From IMG/VR virus record IMGVR_UViG_2645727901_000008: a DNA stretch of 64,000 nucleotides. One strand, 5' to 3'. Below are positions 27,612-48,306 of this stretch, in pieces. The first letter of the stretch is position 1, and each line of letters opens with the position of its first letter. Origin of the DNA: a virus. Its lineage: Duplodnaviria > Heunggongvirae > Uroviricota > Caudoviricetes. The notes beneath the pieces are model-generated. The model was not told the DNA's origin, ran no database searches, and saw nothing but the letters and a program-made list of their open reading frames with translations. The position numbers and the translations under genes are program-made.

Positions 27612-28256
27612 CACGGTATCTTCATCAACTTCTTTCCCAGCCAGTGACTTTGGCTGGGAGGTGCCTGCTTTAACTTTTTCATGCCCAATAATGGAAAGGA
27701 ACGAAGCGAGTATGCCTGTTTTTTGCTCTTTCTCGACTGTACCGGTCATCTGCTCTACATAATCTGCACTGGCAACGTTGTGGTATACGGTCGCGTAGCA
27801 ACACAGGATCATCAGAATATGCTCCGGCCTGATATCCTGCCAGTTCACCCTGTAGACTTCTTCTCCGTTACCGTTGTATTCGGTATCAACGATAGAGTCG
27901 GGGATTTCGAAAGCACCTTTGTTATTTTGCGGCAGGGATAATAGTTTCTGGAGTTTTAACTCTCTGTATCTTTCCATCCCGACGATGATTGCTGCTCTTC
28001 CATCGGCATGACGGGTCTTGAGAGTCACCTGACTTGCTCCGGTGCCAGCGGAGATCGTTGGCGTAATTTCGTCTACCAGTACCTTAAATTTGCTTTTCCG
28101 CAGGGCTGCTATAGCTGGAGGAATTTTTTGCTTTTGCTCCAATGCTGACGCGGGAAGGGGTTTTACTTCGTTAATAATGAGAGCACCGTCTTTCAGTATT
28201 GCAGTGAGCATTTGAGGCTTGCTGGTGGTCAGGCTGAATATTGCGATCTTTTCCAT
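27603..28256 (-). CDS. Hypothetical protein
   Basis: ATG 28256 with GGAGGAAGG RBS. Confidence 0.45.
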   Translation of the reverse strand: MEKIAIFSLTTSKPQMLTAILKDGALIINEVKPLPASALEQKQKIPPAIAALRKSKFKVLVDEITPTISAGTGASQVTLKTRHADGRAAIIVGMERYRELKLQKLLSLPQNNKGAFEIPDSIVDTEYNGNGEEVYRVNWQDIRPEHILMILCCYATVYHNVASADYVEQMTGTVEKEQKTGILASFLSIIGHEKVKAGTSQPKSLAGKEVDEDTVIL

Positions 28257-28524
28257 TGTCCTTCCTCCACGGATGACGGATACAAAAAAAGGCCGCACAT
28301 GGCGGCCTGCTTTGGCGTTATGACTCCCTACCGCGCTTCGGCTGAAAGTTAATCGTCAAAAGAACCTTCAACGGGAGCCGTTAGCGCGATGGATTATGTG
28401 CAGTTTGTGATTTCCAAAATAGTGTCAACCACTTTTTGTGGATTTTATTTTTTGACCGAAATTTGGCCTAAATCATGTTGATGTAGTTAATTGTTTTTAT
28501 AACATAAAACTTCATTTTGTTTAC

Positions 28525-29148
28525 ATGAAGGATGGTGTAGTGAAGTTAAGGGTTTTAGGGGCCGCGCTCGCGGCTATGTTGGGATGCGTATCTGCTAATA
28601 CTGCCAATGCAACTGCGTTACCTGCACAATTCAGGGCAGGGCAGCAGGTTATGAATAATGCTGGTGGGGATCATTCACAAGCGGCCATTATGGACTTTTG
28701 CAAGAGGGAGGGCATTCCATTACGGCCTGTTGGAACTCAGTTTATTGGTAAAACTGACTTTTGCGTTTTTGCATATACAGCATATCTGACGGACAAAGCT
28801 ATAACAAAAACAGGTTATTCAACCAAAGATACTCTTTCCAGATTAAGTCAGGGATGGCAGCAATTCGAAGTGTATCGCCAGCAAGGATTAGGTGAGTTAT
28901 TGCAACCACTTTTTATGCTTGCGTTGGTGCCCGAGGGGCAGCAATTTTTGGTTAAAAAGGGAATGCTTCGCCAAAGTGATATTGCCGGGTTCGATAGCAT
29001 GATGGCTTATGAGCGCAAACTAACCGAGCAGCGAAATAAAAAACCATCTGCTTCATGTGTGCAAAGTAAAACAGCAGAATACAGTGCAGTAGCCGGGCCT
29101 TTAGCCAAACAAATGGCAGAGCAATGGTGTAAAAAATACGGGCAATAA
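28525..29148 (+). CDS. Secreted protein with cleavable signal peptide
   Basis: N-terminal signal peptide ending ANA. Confidence 0.5.
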   Translation: MKDGVVKLRVLGAALAAMLGCVSANTANATALPAQFRAGQQVMNNAGGDHSQAAIMDFCKREGIPLRPVGTQFIGKTDFCVFAYTAYLTDKAITKTGYSTKDTLSRLSQGWQQFEVYRQQGLGELLQPLFMLALVPEGQQFLVKKGMLRQSDIAGFDSMMAYERKLTEQRNKKPSASCVQSKTAEYSAVAGPLAKQMAEQWCKKYGQ

Positions 29149-29168
29149 GTTACGCAGCGGAGGCAGAA

Positions 29169-29561
29169 TTGAAAAGATTGACTATTGCTTTACTGGCGTC
29201 TTTCCCTTTGATCGCGAGCGCCGGAAATTTACAAGTTAAGTGCGGTCGGTTTGATATAAAAATCTATCCAGATGCCATATTTCTGAATGGGAATAAGGTT
29301 GATAACGTACACCGAAAAACTAAATCTGACGTAATGAGCTATGTGTTCCAGGAGTATGCGGAGATGGGGGGAACTTACACGCTGTACTCGCTGGATGTTC
29401 CTTCTCGCGGTGATATGACATTATCCCATCAATGGCAGAACGCCGATGGCGAAGCTCTGCGCGAAGTTAAAACAGAAAAATGCGGCACTTTCCATTCTTT
29501 TAAAGGGAAAGTGCCAAATGTTAAATCTGTGCTTGAAAAACAGCGCGCAGGTGATTTTTAA
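29169..29561 (+). CDS. Small secreted protein
   Basis: Signal peptide MKRLTIALLASFPLIASAG. Confidence 0.5.
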   Translation: MKRLTIALLASFPLIASAGNLQVKCGRFDIKIYPDAIFLNGNKVDNVHRKTKSDVMSYVFQEYAEMGGTYTLYSLDVPSRGDMTLSHQWQNADGEALREVKTEKCGTFHSFKGKVPNVKSVLEKQRAGDF

Positions 29562-29584
29562 ACTGCGTTAGCACTTTGAACATG

Positions 29585-29627
29585 GCGACAACACATCTTG
29601 GTGGCTGCGTTGTCGCTGTATGTTTTT
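29585..29627 (+). terminator. Rho-independent terminator after the secreted-protein genes
   Basis: GCGACAAC / GTTGTCGC stem then T-run. Confidence 0.5.
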
Positions 29628-29649
29628 ATAATATAAAGCATTAAAGTTT

Positions 29650-30267
29650 TCATTTTTGTCGGATCTTTTCCAGCATATTTAATTCATTATCACTTTCTGC
29701 TGCTGAGACGGTTGGCCTCACATTTCCGAAATATTTCCTGTGAGACTCATGACTTATGTATTCACCGACAGTTTCATTCTTGAATATACGAATTTGACAT
29801 ATGCGAGATCCAACAATAAGTTCTACAGGGCTATTCCCATGATTAAATAACTCTAAAGATATACAGCCTCTGTACCCTGGTTGTATCATGGTATTTAATG
29901 AAAGACCAAGCCTTGTATAGCTGCTTCTGGACAATACATCAGCGTAGCAATCTGGTGGCAAACAAACATATTCTAATGTTGTTGCCAGTACCACTTGATT
30001 CGGGTAAACAATGAATCTATCCCCAAGATCTCTCCTTGTTTCCTGGAAAAATGTTCTGATTGGTTGATGAGTATCATTGTTTTTTGATGGAATTAACTCT
30101 ATTGACGGCTTCCTTGTCATAATAGACACTAAAAAATCGTAACCAAGTCTAAGGTCTATGGTGAAGTTCCCAATTTGGTTTTTATTTAGAAGAGGTTCAA
30201 TGAACAACGACTCAGGTTCTTCTGATTCATAATATTGCAGCAATTCAGCTTTGCTTAGGAGATTCAT
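29650..30267 (-). CDS. Standalone dCTP deaminase-like enzyme (dUTPase fold)
   Basis: VLATTLEYVCLP, RSSYTRLGL and IQPGYRGCISLELFN align with E. coli Dcd motifs as recalled; ATG 30267 overlaps the upstream stop (ATGA), GGAG RBS. Confidence 0.7.
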   Translation of the reverse strand: MNLLSKAELLQYYESEEPESLFIEPLLNKNQIGNFTIDLRLGYDFLVSIMTRKPSIELIPSKNNDTHQPIRTFFQETRRDLGDRFIVYPNQVVLATTLEYVCLPPDCYADVLSRSSYTRLGLSLNTMIQPGYRGCISLELFNHGNSPVELIVGSRICQIRIFKNETVGEYISHESHRKYFGNVRPTVSAAESDNELNMLEKIRQK

Positions 30268-31337
30268 TGTGCACTCCATTTTTCAAGAATCATTACGTTT
30301 CGAATCGATTTTTCAACCAAATCATTTATAGTTTTTTCTATGGCTTCTTGTGACAACCCAGACCATATACCCGTAGGTTTTTCCCATTCAGAGCATAAGT
30401 ACTGCCAGCTGCTGTTAATAAAAGCATGCATTTCATTGTGGTCGCGAATAACAAAAGGACGCACATTATCAAAAGCTGATTTCACATCAAGCAAAGGTGT
30501 CGGCAATGTCAAACAAGGAGAAATAATCTGCCCACCATTATGTAAGGCTGATATCACAGCATTGAACATGCCAACAACTGGATTTTCCACTTTGTTCAAA
30601 AAGTCGCTTACAATTTTAACTCTATCTTCTGTGGATGGGTGAGTATAGCTTGCAGGATGAGAGCCAGCTAATTTGTATAAGAAATCTACCCCACTTTTTC
30701 CAATAAATTGGGCACTAAATAGATCTGCAAAATATTCTCTGCAATGATTTATCCAAATAACATCAGGTAGATTACTCCATTCTGGTCCAGGAAGTGTGCC
30801 TTTGTCCTTGGAACGATAGTTAAGACAGGCAAGCTCAGAAATACCTTTGCTAATATCAACGAAATGTCCCAATTCGTGATATAAAGGTATAGAGCATAAT
30901 GGTCGTCTTCTGTACATTTCAGGTAATGAAATCTGAATTAATTCGACATCGAATTTGACATTTAAAACTTCGTCAAATAAAGAATACAAATTCTTGTTTA
31001 CAGACTTAAAATAAAACCCATGCATATCTGGAGATAGGGCTGTGGTTATAAGTGTTTTTTCACTTATCCATTTTTTACAGGCATCATTTAAGCAATAGAC
31101 AATCTCGTAGGGAATTTTCTTTGTAGTACTGCCAGTGAAAAAATTAACTGCATCGGTGATAAAAAAAGTACAATCCGCAATTATTTTATCAGCAACATTC
31201 ACATGGTTTTCATAGAGCTTATCCACCGCTTCTTGTAGAACAGCAAGATATTCATGCATGTCTTTAGAAAAATAGGGAGATTCTGATATCTCCCTTAGCT
31301 TATTTCGAACTAATGTAAGTTGTGTAAATGCAAGCAT
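30264..31337 (-). CDS. HExxH metallopeptidase-like protein (ImmA/IrrE-like HELGH motif)
   Basis: PLYHELGHFVD motif in a 357-aa protein; start overlaps the upstream stop (TAATG). Confidence 0.55.
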   Translation of the reverse strand: MLAFTQLTLVRNKLREISESPYFSKDMHEYLAVLQEAVDKLYENHVNVADKIIADCTFFITDAVNFFTGSTTKKIPYEIVYCLNDACKKWISEKTLITTALSPDMHGFYFKSVNKNLYSLFDEVLNVKFDVELIQISLPEMYRRRPLCSIPLYHELGHFVDISKGISELACLNYRSKDKGTLPGPEWSNLPDVIWINHCREYFADLFSAQFIGKSGVDFLYKLAGSHPASYTHPSTEDRVKIVSDFLNKVENPVVGMFNAVISALHNGGQIISPCLTLPTPLLDVKSAFDNVRPFVIRDHNEMHAFINSSWQYLCSEWEKPTGIWSGLSQEAIEKTINDLVEKSIRNVMILEKWSAQ

Positions 31338-31642
31338 TAAATGTACTCTAATACATTCCGGGCCATTACGGGTTCTAACATATCTTCGCTAGTTACTTTG
31401 GTTAGCACCTGGGCGAGCGCCTTAGTGTGGCGTATCTCTACCGCGAGCGAGATGGACTCTCTGTGAGAAGGAATCTGTAATTGATCACCTTTATCTACAC
31501 TTAAGTTTGAGGCTTCTCTGATCACCTCATAAACCCGTAACTTTAACTGCTGTGACACTTCTTGTTGAGATGCTATAAGCTGAAGTACAGTCTTGATCAA
31601 CTTCAAAGAATCAGAAGCTTGCTGAGGAACCGCATAGAGCAT
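31337..31642 (-). CDS. Small protein, first gene of the three-gene cassette
   Basis: 101-aa ORF translationally coupled to the HExxH gene. Confidence 0.45.
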   Translation of the reverse strand: MLYAVPQQASDSLKLIKTVLQLIASQQEVSQQLKLRVYEVIREASNLSVDKGDQLQIPSHRESISLAVEIRHTKALAQVLTKVTSEDMLEPVMARNVLEYI

Positions 31643-31779
31643 AACCCCTCCTTTCCCTTATCTATAACCGCTTTCTTTTTTCTGTGTATGTTAAAAGTAG
31701 AAGCGGTTTTTACCTTTTGTAATATATATAGTGTCTAAAACTAACTTTGGCACTATATATGGCATGATATCTATGTTTT

Positions 31780-31821
31780 AAAGACACAAAAGCTCTGTTA
31801 AAACAGAGCTTTTGTGTCTTT
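31780..31821. repeat. Perfect 20-bp inverted repeat with 2-nt spacer
   Basis: AAAGACACAAAAGCTCTGTT-AA-AACAGAGCTTTTGTGTCTTT. Confidence 0.8.
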
Positions 31822-31967
31822 AACTTGATCATTTTCTCGCTGAAGTGTATGTCAGGCTTAGCTCATAATCAAGTTGCTTCCAAGCTAAAAATGAGCTAGC
31901 TCCCTGAAACACTAAGAGCGGGGTGTTTCATTTATTAGCGTTGGGCCTGACGGTGTGTAGGTGAATT

Positions 31968-32255
31968 TTAGCTCATTACTCGATAACGACGGGGAATGGA
32001 ATTCTCCATCAGGCCACGAATTACTCCCGCCTCACGTAGTTCCTCTGTCTCCCAGTATCTGTTTGTCACCAGATCGAGGCTGGCTATGACCTTGTGCCGG
32101 TCATTCGGCATAGCTAATTTTTCTGCTATAACCATCAGTGAAAACTCTTCATCCAGTAGAATTTGATAGCAGTTTTTTGATAGTTCCACTTCCCTTATGA
32201 GACTGAAACGTCGCTGGATTGTGGCAGTAGAGTAAGTGAAATCTATTTTCTTCAT
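31968..32255 (-). CDS. Hypothetical small protein downstream of ant
   Basis: 95-aa ORF. Confidence 0.4.
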   Translation of the reverse strand: MKKIDFTYSTATIQRRFSLIREVELSKNCYQILLDEEFSLMVIAEKLAMPNDRHKVIASLDLVTNRYWETEELREAGVIRGLMENSIPRRYRVMS

Positions 32256-32314
32256 CGTGCGGAGAATCCGATTATTTAGCAGTTAAAGCCCCGGACAGGC
32301 CGGGGCAACAGTAA

Positions 32315-33241
32315 TTAACTAACAATCCAGTCCATAGCAACCATATCCTCTGGCGCTAAATCAATAGCATGGATTTTCCCATCCCGGATAGTGCGCCAGT
32401 GCTTCCTTGATCCGCCTTCGGGCCATACCCATACACCTTCAGACCATGAGGCGCGACGGCATACCGTTGCATATCCACTTCTGATCTTCTCTCTGGCGGT
32501 ATGCAGTGACAGATTATCTTTTGGGATTTCCGGTAAAGGATGATGGATTGCCTGAAACAGCCCCATCTTGGGATGATACCAGCGTTTGTTGCGTGGTTCT
32601 GCCTCCGACATAACCTGCTTGAAGGCTTTCTGGAAGGGGGCCAGGGCCACAATGGAGCGTCGCGCAAGCAAACCATCTGGAGTTAAAAACTCATGCGTAT
32701 CGGTGGGAATCCGGAAAGCGTTAACCAGGTTGCGACATTTGGCTTCGGTCAGGCCACATTTCGCCGCCAGCTGGCGGTAGCCAATGTAGCCTTCCGGAAT
32801 ATTGCCTTTCTTTATTTGCTCGAGTGTTTCAGCGACCATCGATACTTGTGCTGATACCTCGGCTACCTGGGCATTTACGGCGTTGATCCGGCGTTCATGC
32901 TCAAGATGCATTTGCGCCATTTCAGCCAGGATTTCGGCTTTTGATTTTAACTGTACCCGGGCATTCTCCAGTTCGCGCCAGCGGTCCACCAGCCGGGCGG
33001 TGAATTCGGGAGAGAGCTGCGCGACGACGACAATACTATCGCGCTTGCCTTGCTCGCCTTCGAAGACGTAATAGCTCGCCGGGCGGCCTGCGGTGGGCTT
33101 TTCCTCAATTTGAGGAAAAGATATTACGCCCCGTTCCGCCAGGTGTTCAATGGTGCGTTTAACGTTATCAGGGCGCTTACCTACCAGTTCCGCGATCTCA
33201 ATGCTGGTCATTGTCGCTTTTTGAGAGATGGACAGATTCAT
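32315..33241 (-). CDS. ant: Antirepressor-like protein (Rha-like N-terminal region)
   Basis: N-terminal TSIEIAELVGKRPDNVKRTIEHL; start overlaps the upstream small ORF stop (ATGA); GGAGG RBS. Confidence 0.55.
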   Translation of the reverse strand: MNLSISQKATMTSIEIAELVGKRPDNVKRTIEHLAERGVISFPQIEEKPTAGRPASYYVFEGEQGKRDSIVVVAQLSPEFTARLVDRWRELENARVQLKSKAEILAEMAQMHLEHERRINAVNAQVAEVSAQVSMVAETLEQIKKGNIPEGYIGYRQLAAKCGLTEAKCRNLVNAFRIPTDTHEFLTPDGLLARRSIVALAPFQKAFKQVMSEAEPRNKRWYHPKMGLFQAIHHPLPEIPKDNLSLHTAREKIRSGYATVCRRASWSEGVWVWPEGGSRKHWRTIRDGKIHAIDLAPEDMVAMDWIVS

Positions 33242-33456
33242 CAGTGCGCCTCCACGCAGTTCATCGGCAGATTCCAGTAATTGAGGATCTCCATCGCATC
33301 AAGAGTGAAGCGAGCAGCAAAAATGCAGGGTTCTTCGGGAAGGTATGAGCGCGCCTCTGCTTCGGTAGCAGCCATGACGCAGATATACAGGTGTTTTTGG
33401 CAGGAATAGAAACGCCAGATAAATTCAGAATGAGTTGGGGTAGGGATAGTAGCCAT
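33241..33456 (-). CDS. icd: Icd-like small protein upstream of ant
   Basis: 71-aa ORF with AGGAGG RBS, positioned like P1 icd. Confidence 0.4.
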   Translation of the reverse strand: MATIPTPTHSEFIWRFYSCQKHLYICVMAATEAEARSYLPEEPCIFAARFTLDAMEILNYWNLPMNCVEAH

Positions 33457-33631
33457 ATTGGCAGCCTCCTTTGACTAAGTTAAGGAGCTACCGCGTGAGG
33501 TTCCAATCTCAATGGCGGTAGCACTGACTGGGTTGGAACTACCGGCGTCAAAGGGAACCGGCCTGCCTTTCGGCAGCCCAGCCAGCACTACCATTGATCT
33601 CTGAGCTAAACGCTACGTATGGCTGTGCGAT

Positions 33632-33720
33632 GGCATGACACAAAAAAAGACGCTTTCGGCGTCTGTGTCGCCTTTGACATTATCCGGGGTTCCAATCCCG
33701 GCACCCGTTTTTCTAAGGTG
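33632..33720 (-). ncRNA. Candidate c4-like antisense RNA
   Basis: Promoter-like region with operator-like GTAGAAATATA, then on the minus strand a hairpin (AGACGC-CGAAA-GCGTCT) plus U-run about 80 nt downstream; GGTTCCAATC-type elements recur in the icd leader. Confidence 0.35.
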
Positions 33721-33772
33721 CCGTAGAAATATACCCCACGATAATGCCAGGGCGCAACAGTCAGTATTTTAT

Positions 33773-33937
33773 GCTTTGGCGGATTTCTTCCGGGCTTGCT
33801 TGCAGGCGTAGGCCATTGCTTTAGCTTTCACTTCATCCAGCTTCCCGGTGATCGCTTCTTTTCCGAGAGTGACAAACCAGTCATAGCAACCGCCAGTGAT
33901 GTTCTGGATTTGAAAGTTGAGGTAGCGAACGGTCATT
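33773..33937 (-). CDS. Small hypothetical protein (54 aa), not in the ORF track
   Basis: ATG with GGGGGTG RBS-like upstream. Confidence 0.3.
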
Positions 33938-34256
33938 TTGACACCCCCAGCGCGAGTAAAGAATGCAGATTATCGCGTGAGTGGCGGACAACGAGTGATG
34001 GGAAAAGACAGTAGCTGTTCATAGTGTAGTGACTCCTTGCTTTCGGAGCCGCCATCGACTGTTCCACGGTCTGGTGGCGGCGCAATAAAGGCTGGAACAC
34101 CGTGAGTCAACGGGGGCTTTTCAGCCACCTATATTGCACCGCCATAGGTATAGCGGCGGCAATAATACGAAAAACTAAACAGTTTGTCTCAAAAAGTTGA
34201 CCGGTGTGCCAATCGGTAGTGAATGTACATCGGAGAAATTTACAATTCAACTTAAA

Positions 34257-47811: not shown

Positions 47812-48306
47812 TTATAACTTTTCGTACTGAAGCGGTGAACGCTTAATTTCAAAGTGGCCTTCCGATGTGCTACCAAAGCCACCAGCACCACGTTCCGTTT
47901 CGTTGAGTTCCTCAACCTCGACTAGTGAGACTTGTTCAACACGCTCAAAAATGCCTTGCATGACAGCCATTCCTGGCTTGAGACAAACGCCTTCCCCGCC
48001 GGGATCAGTAATCAGTTTTGCCATGATTTCACCGCGATAATCGGAGTCGATAATTCCTACGCAGTTAGCCAGGCGAGTATGTTTTTTGCAGCCCAATCCG
48101 GATCGCGGATAGAGTTTCAGACACCAGCCGGGCGGGATCTCCATAGCCAGTCCGGTATACACCCACCAGCTTGAGGAAATTGCACCATTGCTATCGACGC
48201 ATGTTTTTATTTCAACAGCCTCAAAATCCATCGCCGCCGATCCGGAGGTGGCATAAGCTGGAAGTTTTGCTGCCGGATGTAGGCGTTTCACTTTTACGTA
48301 AATCAT
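47812..48306 (-). CDS. dut: dUTPase
   Basis: Motifs YPRSGL, GIIDSDYRGE, RGAGGFGSTS. Confidence 0.75.
   Translation of the reverse strand: MIYVKVKRLHPAAKLPAYATSGSAAMDFEAVEIKTCVDSNGAISSSWWVYTGLAMEIPPGWCLKLYPRSGLGCKKHTRLANCVGIIDSDYRGEIMAKLITDPGGEGVCLKPGMAVMQGIFERVEQVSLVEVEELNETERGAGGFGSTSEGHFEIKRSPLQYEKL

Follow-up and report, generated by a model that had tools for sequence, protein, structure and literature searches.

A three-gene cassette pairing a Dcd-fold enzyme with an HExxH peptidase-like protein as a candidate nucleotide-pool immunity system

Our analysis of a 64,000-nucleotide stretch of DNA (the window; IMG/VR virus record IMGVR_UViG_2645727901_000008, Caudoviricetes) indicates that three overlapping minus-strand genes within it, encoding a small helical protein, an HExxH zinc-peptidase-like protein and a dCTP deaminase-like (Dcd-fold) protein, form one conserved, co-inherited module and not a chance neighbourhood. 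We propose, with a probability of roughly 0.55, that this trio is a new protease-regulated variant of nucleotide-pool immunity, with the Dcd-like enzyme as its presumed effector, under the control of the peptidase and the small protein. We take the trio to be a self-contained mobile conflict module, most probably one for defence against phage or for abortive infection. We favour a conflict system over a metabolic one because the trio spreads horizontally and sporadically, keeps a fixed gene order, shows an effector-like gradient of conservation, occupies defence islands and transposon cargo, and associates with the regulatory pair CapH/CapP.

Linkage and genomic company of the trio

When about 100,000 species genomes, one genome per species, were scanned for the HExxH protein, 50 loci encoding it were found, in Alpha-, Beta-, Gamma- and Deltaproteobacteria and in Bacteroidota. 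A Dcd-like gene of the same clade lies directly downstream of the HExxH gene in 48 of them, the two exceptions being one locus at a contig end and one distant variant, and a same-strand gene for a protein of about 100 residues lies directly upstream in nearly all. The trio had been singled out in an earlier prediction made from the letters of the window alone, which recommended a co-occurrence search, and in such a search it does recur. In our protein library a single protein of 631 amino acids (P0372) carries the HExxH protein and a Dcd-like domain in one chain; it is either a Rosetta-stone fusion or, as the two genes overlap, possibly a single read-through artefact.

The trio resides mostly on chromosomal islands and in transposon cargo, and rarely in viral contigs: only 3 trio loci were found in IMG/VR viral contigs, and neither megablast nor tblastn found a match in phage records. 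In an island of Proteus mirabilis, which also carries AlpA, the trio stands between QatABCD and a P4-type integrase, while a metagenomic Tn7-like element carries as cargo a PNP-NACHT protein, a Type I Bub operon, CapH/CapP, the trio and a BsuBI/PstI restriction-modification system. The CapP and CapH neighbours were confirmed by PADLOC models (3e-19 and 7e-12; PADLOC-DB v2.0.0). The original prediction had offered defence and counter-defence side by side; the relatives in defence islands favour defence, and counter-defence becomes the less likely of the two given how seldom the trio occurs in viral contigs.

A frequent immediate neighbour is Type I Bub, a bacterial ubiquitin-like system. In 22 of the 48 trio loci, across phyla and in at least 8 arrangements, a Bub JAB-E1 gene is found at most 6 kb from the trio, and BubE (DUF6527), Multi_ubiq/Prok-E2_E and CapH/CapP are often nearby as well, with CapH/CapP often between Bub and the trio (our loci L003, L007, L010, L016-L025, L027, L028, L034, L036, L038-L041, L043, L045, L051 and L139-L141). 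In Rhizobiales BubE abuts the small gene at a distance of 2-45 nt, and on the tree of the Dcd-like protein Bub-positive and Bub-negative loci interleave. The reverse scan was made with a Bacteroidota-only BubE alignment, a cross-phylum one being too divergent, and none of the 80 metagenomic loci found with this Bacteroidota-type BubE carries the trio. The association is thus strong but one-sided. In the window itself, phmmer searches of Bub components against all open reading frames (ORFs) found no Bub gene.

Two further observations belong to these Bub-associated loci. One IMG/VR contig (L055:1-2600) carries BubE, the small gene and a peptidase gene whose similarity ends after about residue 241, where a phage-like ORF of 619 amino acids begins on the opposite strand, possibly a mobile-element insertion into the trio. 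In the Rhizobiales islands (L016-L025, L038; about 1,980-2,880) a protein of about 204 amino acids (cluster c3) is encoded beside a ribbon-helix-helix (RHH) protein; its consensus looks GNAT-like by eye, it has no Pfam match, and the two may be a GNAT/RHH toxin-antitoxin pair. The idea that this cluster is a hidden BubAB was set aside, as the consensus resembles a GNAT acetyltransferase.

The three proteins

The features of the cassette on which the following paragraphs draw are these.

29564..31980, minus strand: whole inserted cassette, 2,417 bp of low GC content, with its own regulatory region and three genes
31337..31642, minus strand: small protein, 101 amino acids, all-helical and fast-evolving, preceded by a strong Shine-Dalgarno sequence, AAGGAGG
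30264..31337, minus strand: HExxH zinc-peptidase-like protein, 357 amino acids, with HELGH at residues 154-158
29650..30279, minus strand: Dcd-fold (dCTP deaminase-like) protein, 209 amino acids from 30279 or 205 from 30267
31778..31823, no strand: perfect palindrome with 22-nt arms (31778-31799 and 31802-31823), 100% complementary, and a 2-nt loop, at the 5' edge of the promoter-like region
31752..31781, minus strand: predicted promoter-like site, by consensus match alone (TTAAAA, 18-nt spacer, TATAGT)
31724..31760, no strand: second inverted repeat, ATATATAGT ... ACTATATAT, overlapping the -10-like TATAGT

The Dcd-like protein is the best conserved of the three, with a mean pairwise identity of 48% against 33% for the peptidase and 21% for the small protein. 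It matches the Pfam family DCD (PF22769) at 1.3e-30, with 107 bits against a cut-off of 27, and TIGR02274 with 113.3 bits against a cut-off of 92.8; DCD/dUTPase families are the only Pfam families it matches, and the closest solved structures are dCTP deaminases, at about 60 bits. The description of the last gene as a compact Dcd/dUTPase-fold protein of about 205 residues therefore holds. Its catalytic-region motifs had also been called intact, and this is true in part: RSSYTRLG (residues 118-125) and IQPGYRGCISLELFN (132-146) are present in the 209-residue ORF, and S119, R123 and E143 align with S111, R115 and E138 of E. coli Dcd and are conserved in at least 90% of the clade (48 relatives), but in the protein of the window, as in at least 90% of the same 48 members, Gln (Q133, giving QPG) stands in place of the Asp of the IDPG motif, D128 in E. 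coli. The corresponding Asp serves dUTPases as their catalytic base. Because the Asp required for dUTPase-type hydrolysis is Gln, the protein is probably a deaminase whose reaction stops at the triphosphate, with no further hydrolysis of dUTP.

With housekeeping Dcd the cassette protein thus has in common the fold, a score above the family cut-off and the catalytic Ser, Arg and Glu. It differs in scoring only about 58 bits against E. coli Dcd (1XS1), in the Asp128-to-Gln change, in a shorter loop ahead of the (I/V)DPG motif, in a conserved C-terminal extension of its clade, and in being encoded on mobile elements within a fixed trio.

The HELGH motif that the original prediction saw in the middle gene is there. 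In an alignment of 23 sequences the invariant positions are H154-E155-x-x-H158, H198, E201, D205 and H233-P234, and an AlphaFold2 (AF2) model, with a predicted local distance difference test (pLDDT) score of 91.3, places three strands at residues 95-139, the HExxH helix at 151-164 and a Glu-bearing helix at 192-212. In this model the order of strands and helices is zincin-like and the general features of a gluzincin are present. The family is small, with 512 representatives among 1.84 billion proteins, and its match to M48 is weak (E = 0.01, below the cut-off). The motif had further been assigned to the ImmA/IrrE type. We reject this identity: at E <= 1 the protein has no match to PF06114 (Peptidase_M78), and profile-profile comparison by hhalign with 11 genuine CapP/M78 proteins gives a probability of 4.6%.

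For the small protein the AF2 model shows five helices at moderate confidence (pLDDT 71.5), a generic helical bundle for which no informative fold match was found, and it has no significant helix-turn-helix (HTH) match (LacI, E = 0.09). Its homologues agree only at the N-terminus, where 47 of 49 gene calls read M-[L/Y/F]-x-[A/S]. Leu, Tyr and Phe are bacterial N-end-rule residues recognised by ClpS, and because position 2 is one of these three, one may speculate that the small protein is an inhibitor which becomes unstable once the peptidase has taken off Met1. The N-terminus of the HExxH protein itself also often begins with ML.

A mobile cassette with its own regulatory region

The replicon in the window matches E. 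coli and Salmonella plasmids of 90-97 kb which encode Ref, Icd, Ant/Rha, RdgC, tail and maturation proteins, and it therefore belongs to the class of P1/D6-like phage-plasmids. In a cassette-free relative (L002) homology by blastn spans 28001-29563 and 31981-34000, with 31 bp in between; with the backbone homology ending at 29563 and picking up again at 31981, the cassette stands out as a discrete insertion that brought its own upstream region along. It is present in 8 of 68 related E. coli replicons, the others being interrupted at the same two positions with 31 bp between them, and in 12 PLSDB plasmids. The AT-rich island described in the original prediction is borne out by a GC content of 0.33-0.41 over 29600-31800 against 0.43-0.54 in the flanks, and the ORF of 95 amino acids at 31968-32255 belongs to the backbone, not to the cassette. 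The cassette is thus cargo within a variable hotspot of the phage-plasmid. Elsewhere on the element a conventional dUTPase is encoded at 47812-48306 on the minus strand (PF00692, 5.7e-15), as had been noticed before; it could turn dUTP made by the cassette into dUMP. E. coli has a chromosomal dcd. We agree with the original prediction that the cassette is not needed for housekeeping, judging it redundant and given its place in a variable hotspot.

Around the cassette, the plus-strand ORFs 28525-29148 (207 amino acids) and 29169-29561 (130 amino acids), just downstream of it in the backbone, begin with sequences resembling signal peptides and match no Pfam family. About 5 kb from the cassette site, another variable accessory region of related phage-plasmids holds toxin-antitoxin pairs, HigB/HigA or RelE/HigA (L001:3886-4551; L002:1408-2535). 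Two divergent Salmonella plasmids resemble error-rich assemblies and are uninformative as to which cassette gene is dispensable.

The three predicted minus-strand genes were found again at 31642..31337, 31337..30264 and 30279..29650, overlapping as described. The small gene and the peptidase gene meet in TAATG, with 1 nt in common at 31337, and the peptidase and Dcd-like genes overlap by 4 nt (ATGA) if the latter encodes 205 residues, or by 16 nt from its longest ORF; the RefSeq annotation of a 98.9%-identical plasmid starts it at the second Met (window 30267), for 205 residues.

Upstream, the inverted repeat reported earlier as perfect over 20 bp is indeed perfect, though its arms measure 22 nt; we estimate the chance expectation of such a repeat in 350 nt at about 1e-10. 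At the equivalent position in Proteus (L136, 9500-9560), where the cassette proteins are about 66% identical to those of the window, stands a perfect palindrome with 24-nt arms and a different sequence. Since the sequence differs and the palindrome stays perfect, both arms changed together. Perfect palindromes with 22-nt arms also lie just upstream of the trio in two Flavobacteriia loci (L033 and L040), so that in Flavobacterium, Nonlabens and Proteus, unrelated hosts, the arms measure 22-24 nt around a centre of 0-2 nt, each in a different sequence. Loci with CapH/CapP directly upstream of the trio lack such a palindrome. The leader folds far better than shuffled sequences (z = -7.2), and no Rfam family matches the leader or the palindrome, which is a candidate operator or else a hairpin in RNA or DNA, such as a 5' stem-loop. 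Both promoter-like hexamers align with similar sequence in Proteus, where the arms of the second repeat, ATATATAGT and ACTATATAT, are kept in sequence and the spacer differs.

Proposed mechanism and competing explanations

How could such a trio act against phage? In the scheme that we infer for function, substrate, cleavage partners and trigger, starting from the observed gene linkage, residue conservation, genomic contexts and mobility, the cassette would be expressed from its own promoter, flanked by the covarying perfect palindrome, with the damage-responsive CapH/CapP pair occupying that position instead in many relatives. The HExxH protein would be an active zinc peptidase that controls the Dcd-like enzyme, and the small helical protein a variable partner that may act as inhibitor, serve as substrate or itself encounter the phage, with its conserved N-terminus as a candidate recognition or cleavage site. 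Once released, the Dcd-like enzyme would make dUTP by deaminating dCTP or a cytosine nucleotide akin to it, so that replication would be starved of dCTP while dUTP is raised.

Depletion of dCTP through deamination is a proven defence, and the defensive dCTP deaminase is a single protein of 576 amino acids with a zinc cytidine-deaminase domain and an N-terminal kinase-like domain (Tal et al., bioRxiv 10.1101/2021.04.26.441389). The logic we propose resembles that of this enzyme and of AvcD, namely deamination of deoxycytidine nucleotides during infection to starve phage replication, and all of them occur in defence islands. The trio enzyme, however, has an unrelated Dcd/dUTPase beta fold, is only about 205 residues long, shows neither of those two domains by Pfam or PADLOC, and is always accompanied by an HExxH protein and a small protein. 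The original prediction had named the cytidine-deaminase fold of the known nucleotide-depletion defences correctly, and its suggestion that the arrangement may be new stands: no model in PADLOC-DB v2.0.0 matches it, and no description of the trio was found in the searchable literature outside subscription journals. The nearest hint is the domain 'dUTPase' among the unvalidated defence domains predicted by DefensePredictor.

CapH/CapP and ImmR/ImmA likewise place an HExxH protein and a small partner ahead of an immune effector. The HExxH protein of the trio, in contrast, is not of the M78 type and its small protein has no significant HTH match, and genuine CapH/CapP pairs adjoin many trio loci in addition to the trio. 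Type I Bub (6E.1/DUF6527) has CapH/CapP regulators and a mobile-island habitat in common with the trio, which for its part has no ubiquitin-like (Ubl), E1, E2 or BubE domains and is absent from most Bub loci sampled. HExxH proteases can act as immune switches, as Lit does in cleaving EF-Tu, and proteins of the dUTPase fold are involved when mobile elements come into conflict, where phage dUTPases bind the SaPI repressor Stl. With Lit and protease abortive-infection systems, or with dUTPase-Stl, we detected no relationship of sequence or fold; unlike them, the trio has as partner a deaminase-type enzyme that retains its catalytic residues.

Several considerations weigh against our proposal. We read the defence role from the gene neighbourhood, PADLOC has no match for the Dcd-like and HExxH proteins, and for the small protein it gives only a chance-level Csx1 match (E = 0.015). 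No solved structure or Protein Data Bank (PDB) sequence resembles the HExxH protein, whose proteolysis is read from its motifs. The change of D128 to Gln, with other changes near the sugar/phosphate site, means that the substrate may not be dCTP. In a distant Prevotellaceae variant (L052:5417-10804) a small gene (118 amino acids) and a HELGH protein (375 amino acids) are followed by a NACHT/STAND NTPase of 1,271 amino acids, with a weak match to PADLOC PDC-M54A, and no Dcd-like gene; this suggests that the third component can be swapped, and it fits equally well with the peptidase as output and the third gene as sensor. Finally, three trios in Hymenobacteraceae directly adjoin the large subunit of ribonucleotide reductase (PF02867, 2.9e-220; L037:3124-5517, L049:3108-5489, L048:6390-7733), in two different orientations, which could hint at a metabolic role or a link to deoxynucleotide (dNTP) metabolism, or could reflect an insertion hotspot.

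The roles might be reversed, with a Dcd-like trimer sensing infection through a bound nucleotide, for instance dCTP modified by the phage or one that betrays an unbalanced pool, and switching on the HExxH peptidase against an essential host or phage protein, as Lit acts on EF-Tu. The Prevotellaceae variant keeps the small and HExxH genes beside an NTPase of a typical sensor class, the peptidase has many invariant residues outside the metal site, and the phage dUTPases that act on Stl are a precedent for signalling partners of this fold. We nevertheless consider this unlikely, as the variant is a single example and the full catalytic Ser, Arg and Glu of the Dcd-like protein, superfluous in a pure binder, are under strong purifying selection. 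Just as unlikely, in our estimate, is a trio that serves Type I Bub as an accessory arm, be it target, regulator or effector, with the phage-plasmid copy a detached remnant or one that uses a host-encoded partner. The proximity of JAB-E1 across phyla, the Rhizobiales BubE next to the small gene and the interleaving on the Dcd-like tree all speak for it, as does the fact that the targets and the biological role of Bub are unknown; the Bub papers mention neither the trio nor a deaminase (Ye et al. 10.1101/2024.11.21.623953). However, 26 of the 48 trio loci, and the window, have no Bub gene, the metagenomic BubE loci lack the trio, and co-location in defence islands under common CapH/CapP control could by itself account for the link. 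A more specific form of this idea, and a distinctly doubtful one, would make the trio the missing output of some Type I Bub systems: the protease, with Ubl conjugation where present, would process the small protein, for instance by removing Met1 to expose a Leu, Tyr or Phe N-degron, and thereby control the Dcd-fold enzyme, which once freed would flood the cell with dUTP and remove dCTP.

An addiction module of the toxin-antitoxin type, which would keep the plasmid prophage, and mobile elements in general, from being lost but have no specific anti-phage role, seems improbable to us. Its carriers, a low-copy phage-plasmid, integrative islands and Tn7-like cargo, would suit it, as would a small, labile-looking first gene ahead of a potentially toxic enzyme and the presence of HigBA on related plasmids. 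On the other hand, simple addiction modules do not usually have three components and a protease of their own, the company of CapH/CapP and defence systems points to a module induced by infection or damage, and most related phage-plasmids do without the cassette. We give least credence to a service in nucleotide metabolism or counter-defence for the phage-plasmid, such as providing the dUMP from which dTTP is made or restoring pools that host defences have drained, which we regard as very improbable. The name dcd that automatic annotation gives to the third gene, the dUTPase on the same element and the three Hymenobacteraceae loci beside ribonucleotide reductase would agree with it; but the distribution is sporadic (50 loci in about 100,000 species genomes), the Dcd-like gene is obligately linked to a protease-like gene and a fast-evolving small gene, and the trio hardly ever appears in phage records or viral contigs, most copies lying in chromosomal defence islands.

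Should protease-regulated nucleotide-pool immunity, the reading we prefer, be confirmed, the trio would add a third enzyme fold to nucleotide-depletion immunity, beside the cytidine-deaminase-type dCTP deaminases and the dGTPases, and would be the first such immunity with an obligatory protease-like partner and a hypervariable small protein. Because the hydrolytic Asp has been lost, the enzyme may make dUTP on purpose, thereby coupling depletion of the pool to uracil poisoning of replicating DNA. Annotation pipelines that label the third gene as an ordinary dcd hide the system. More generally, the association of the trio with Bub offers a handle on the partners of bacterial ubiquitin-like pathways, and the trio as the missing output of Bub would, if true, represent a new immune logic.

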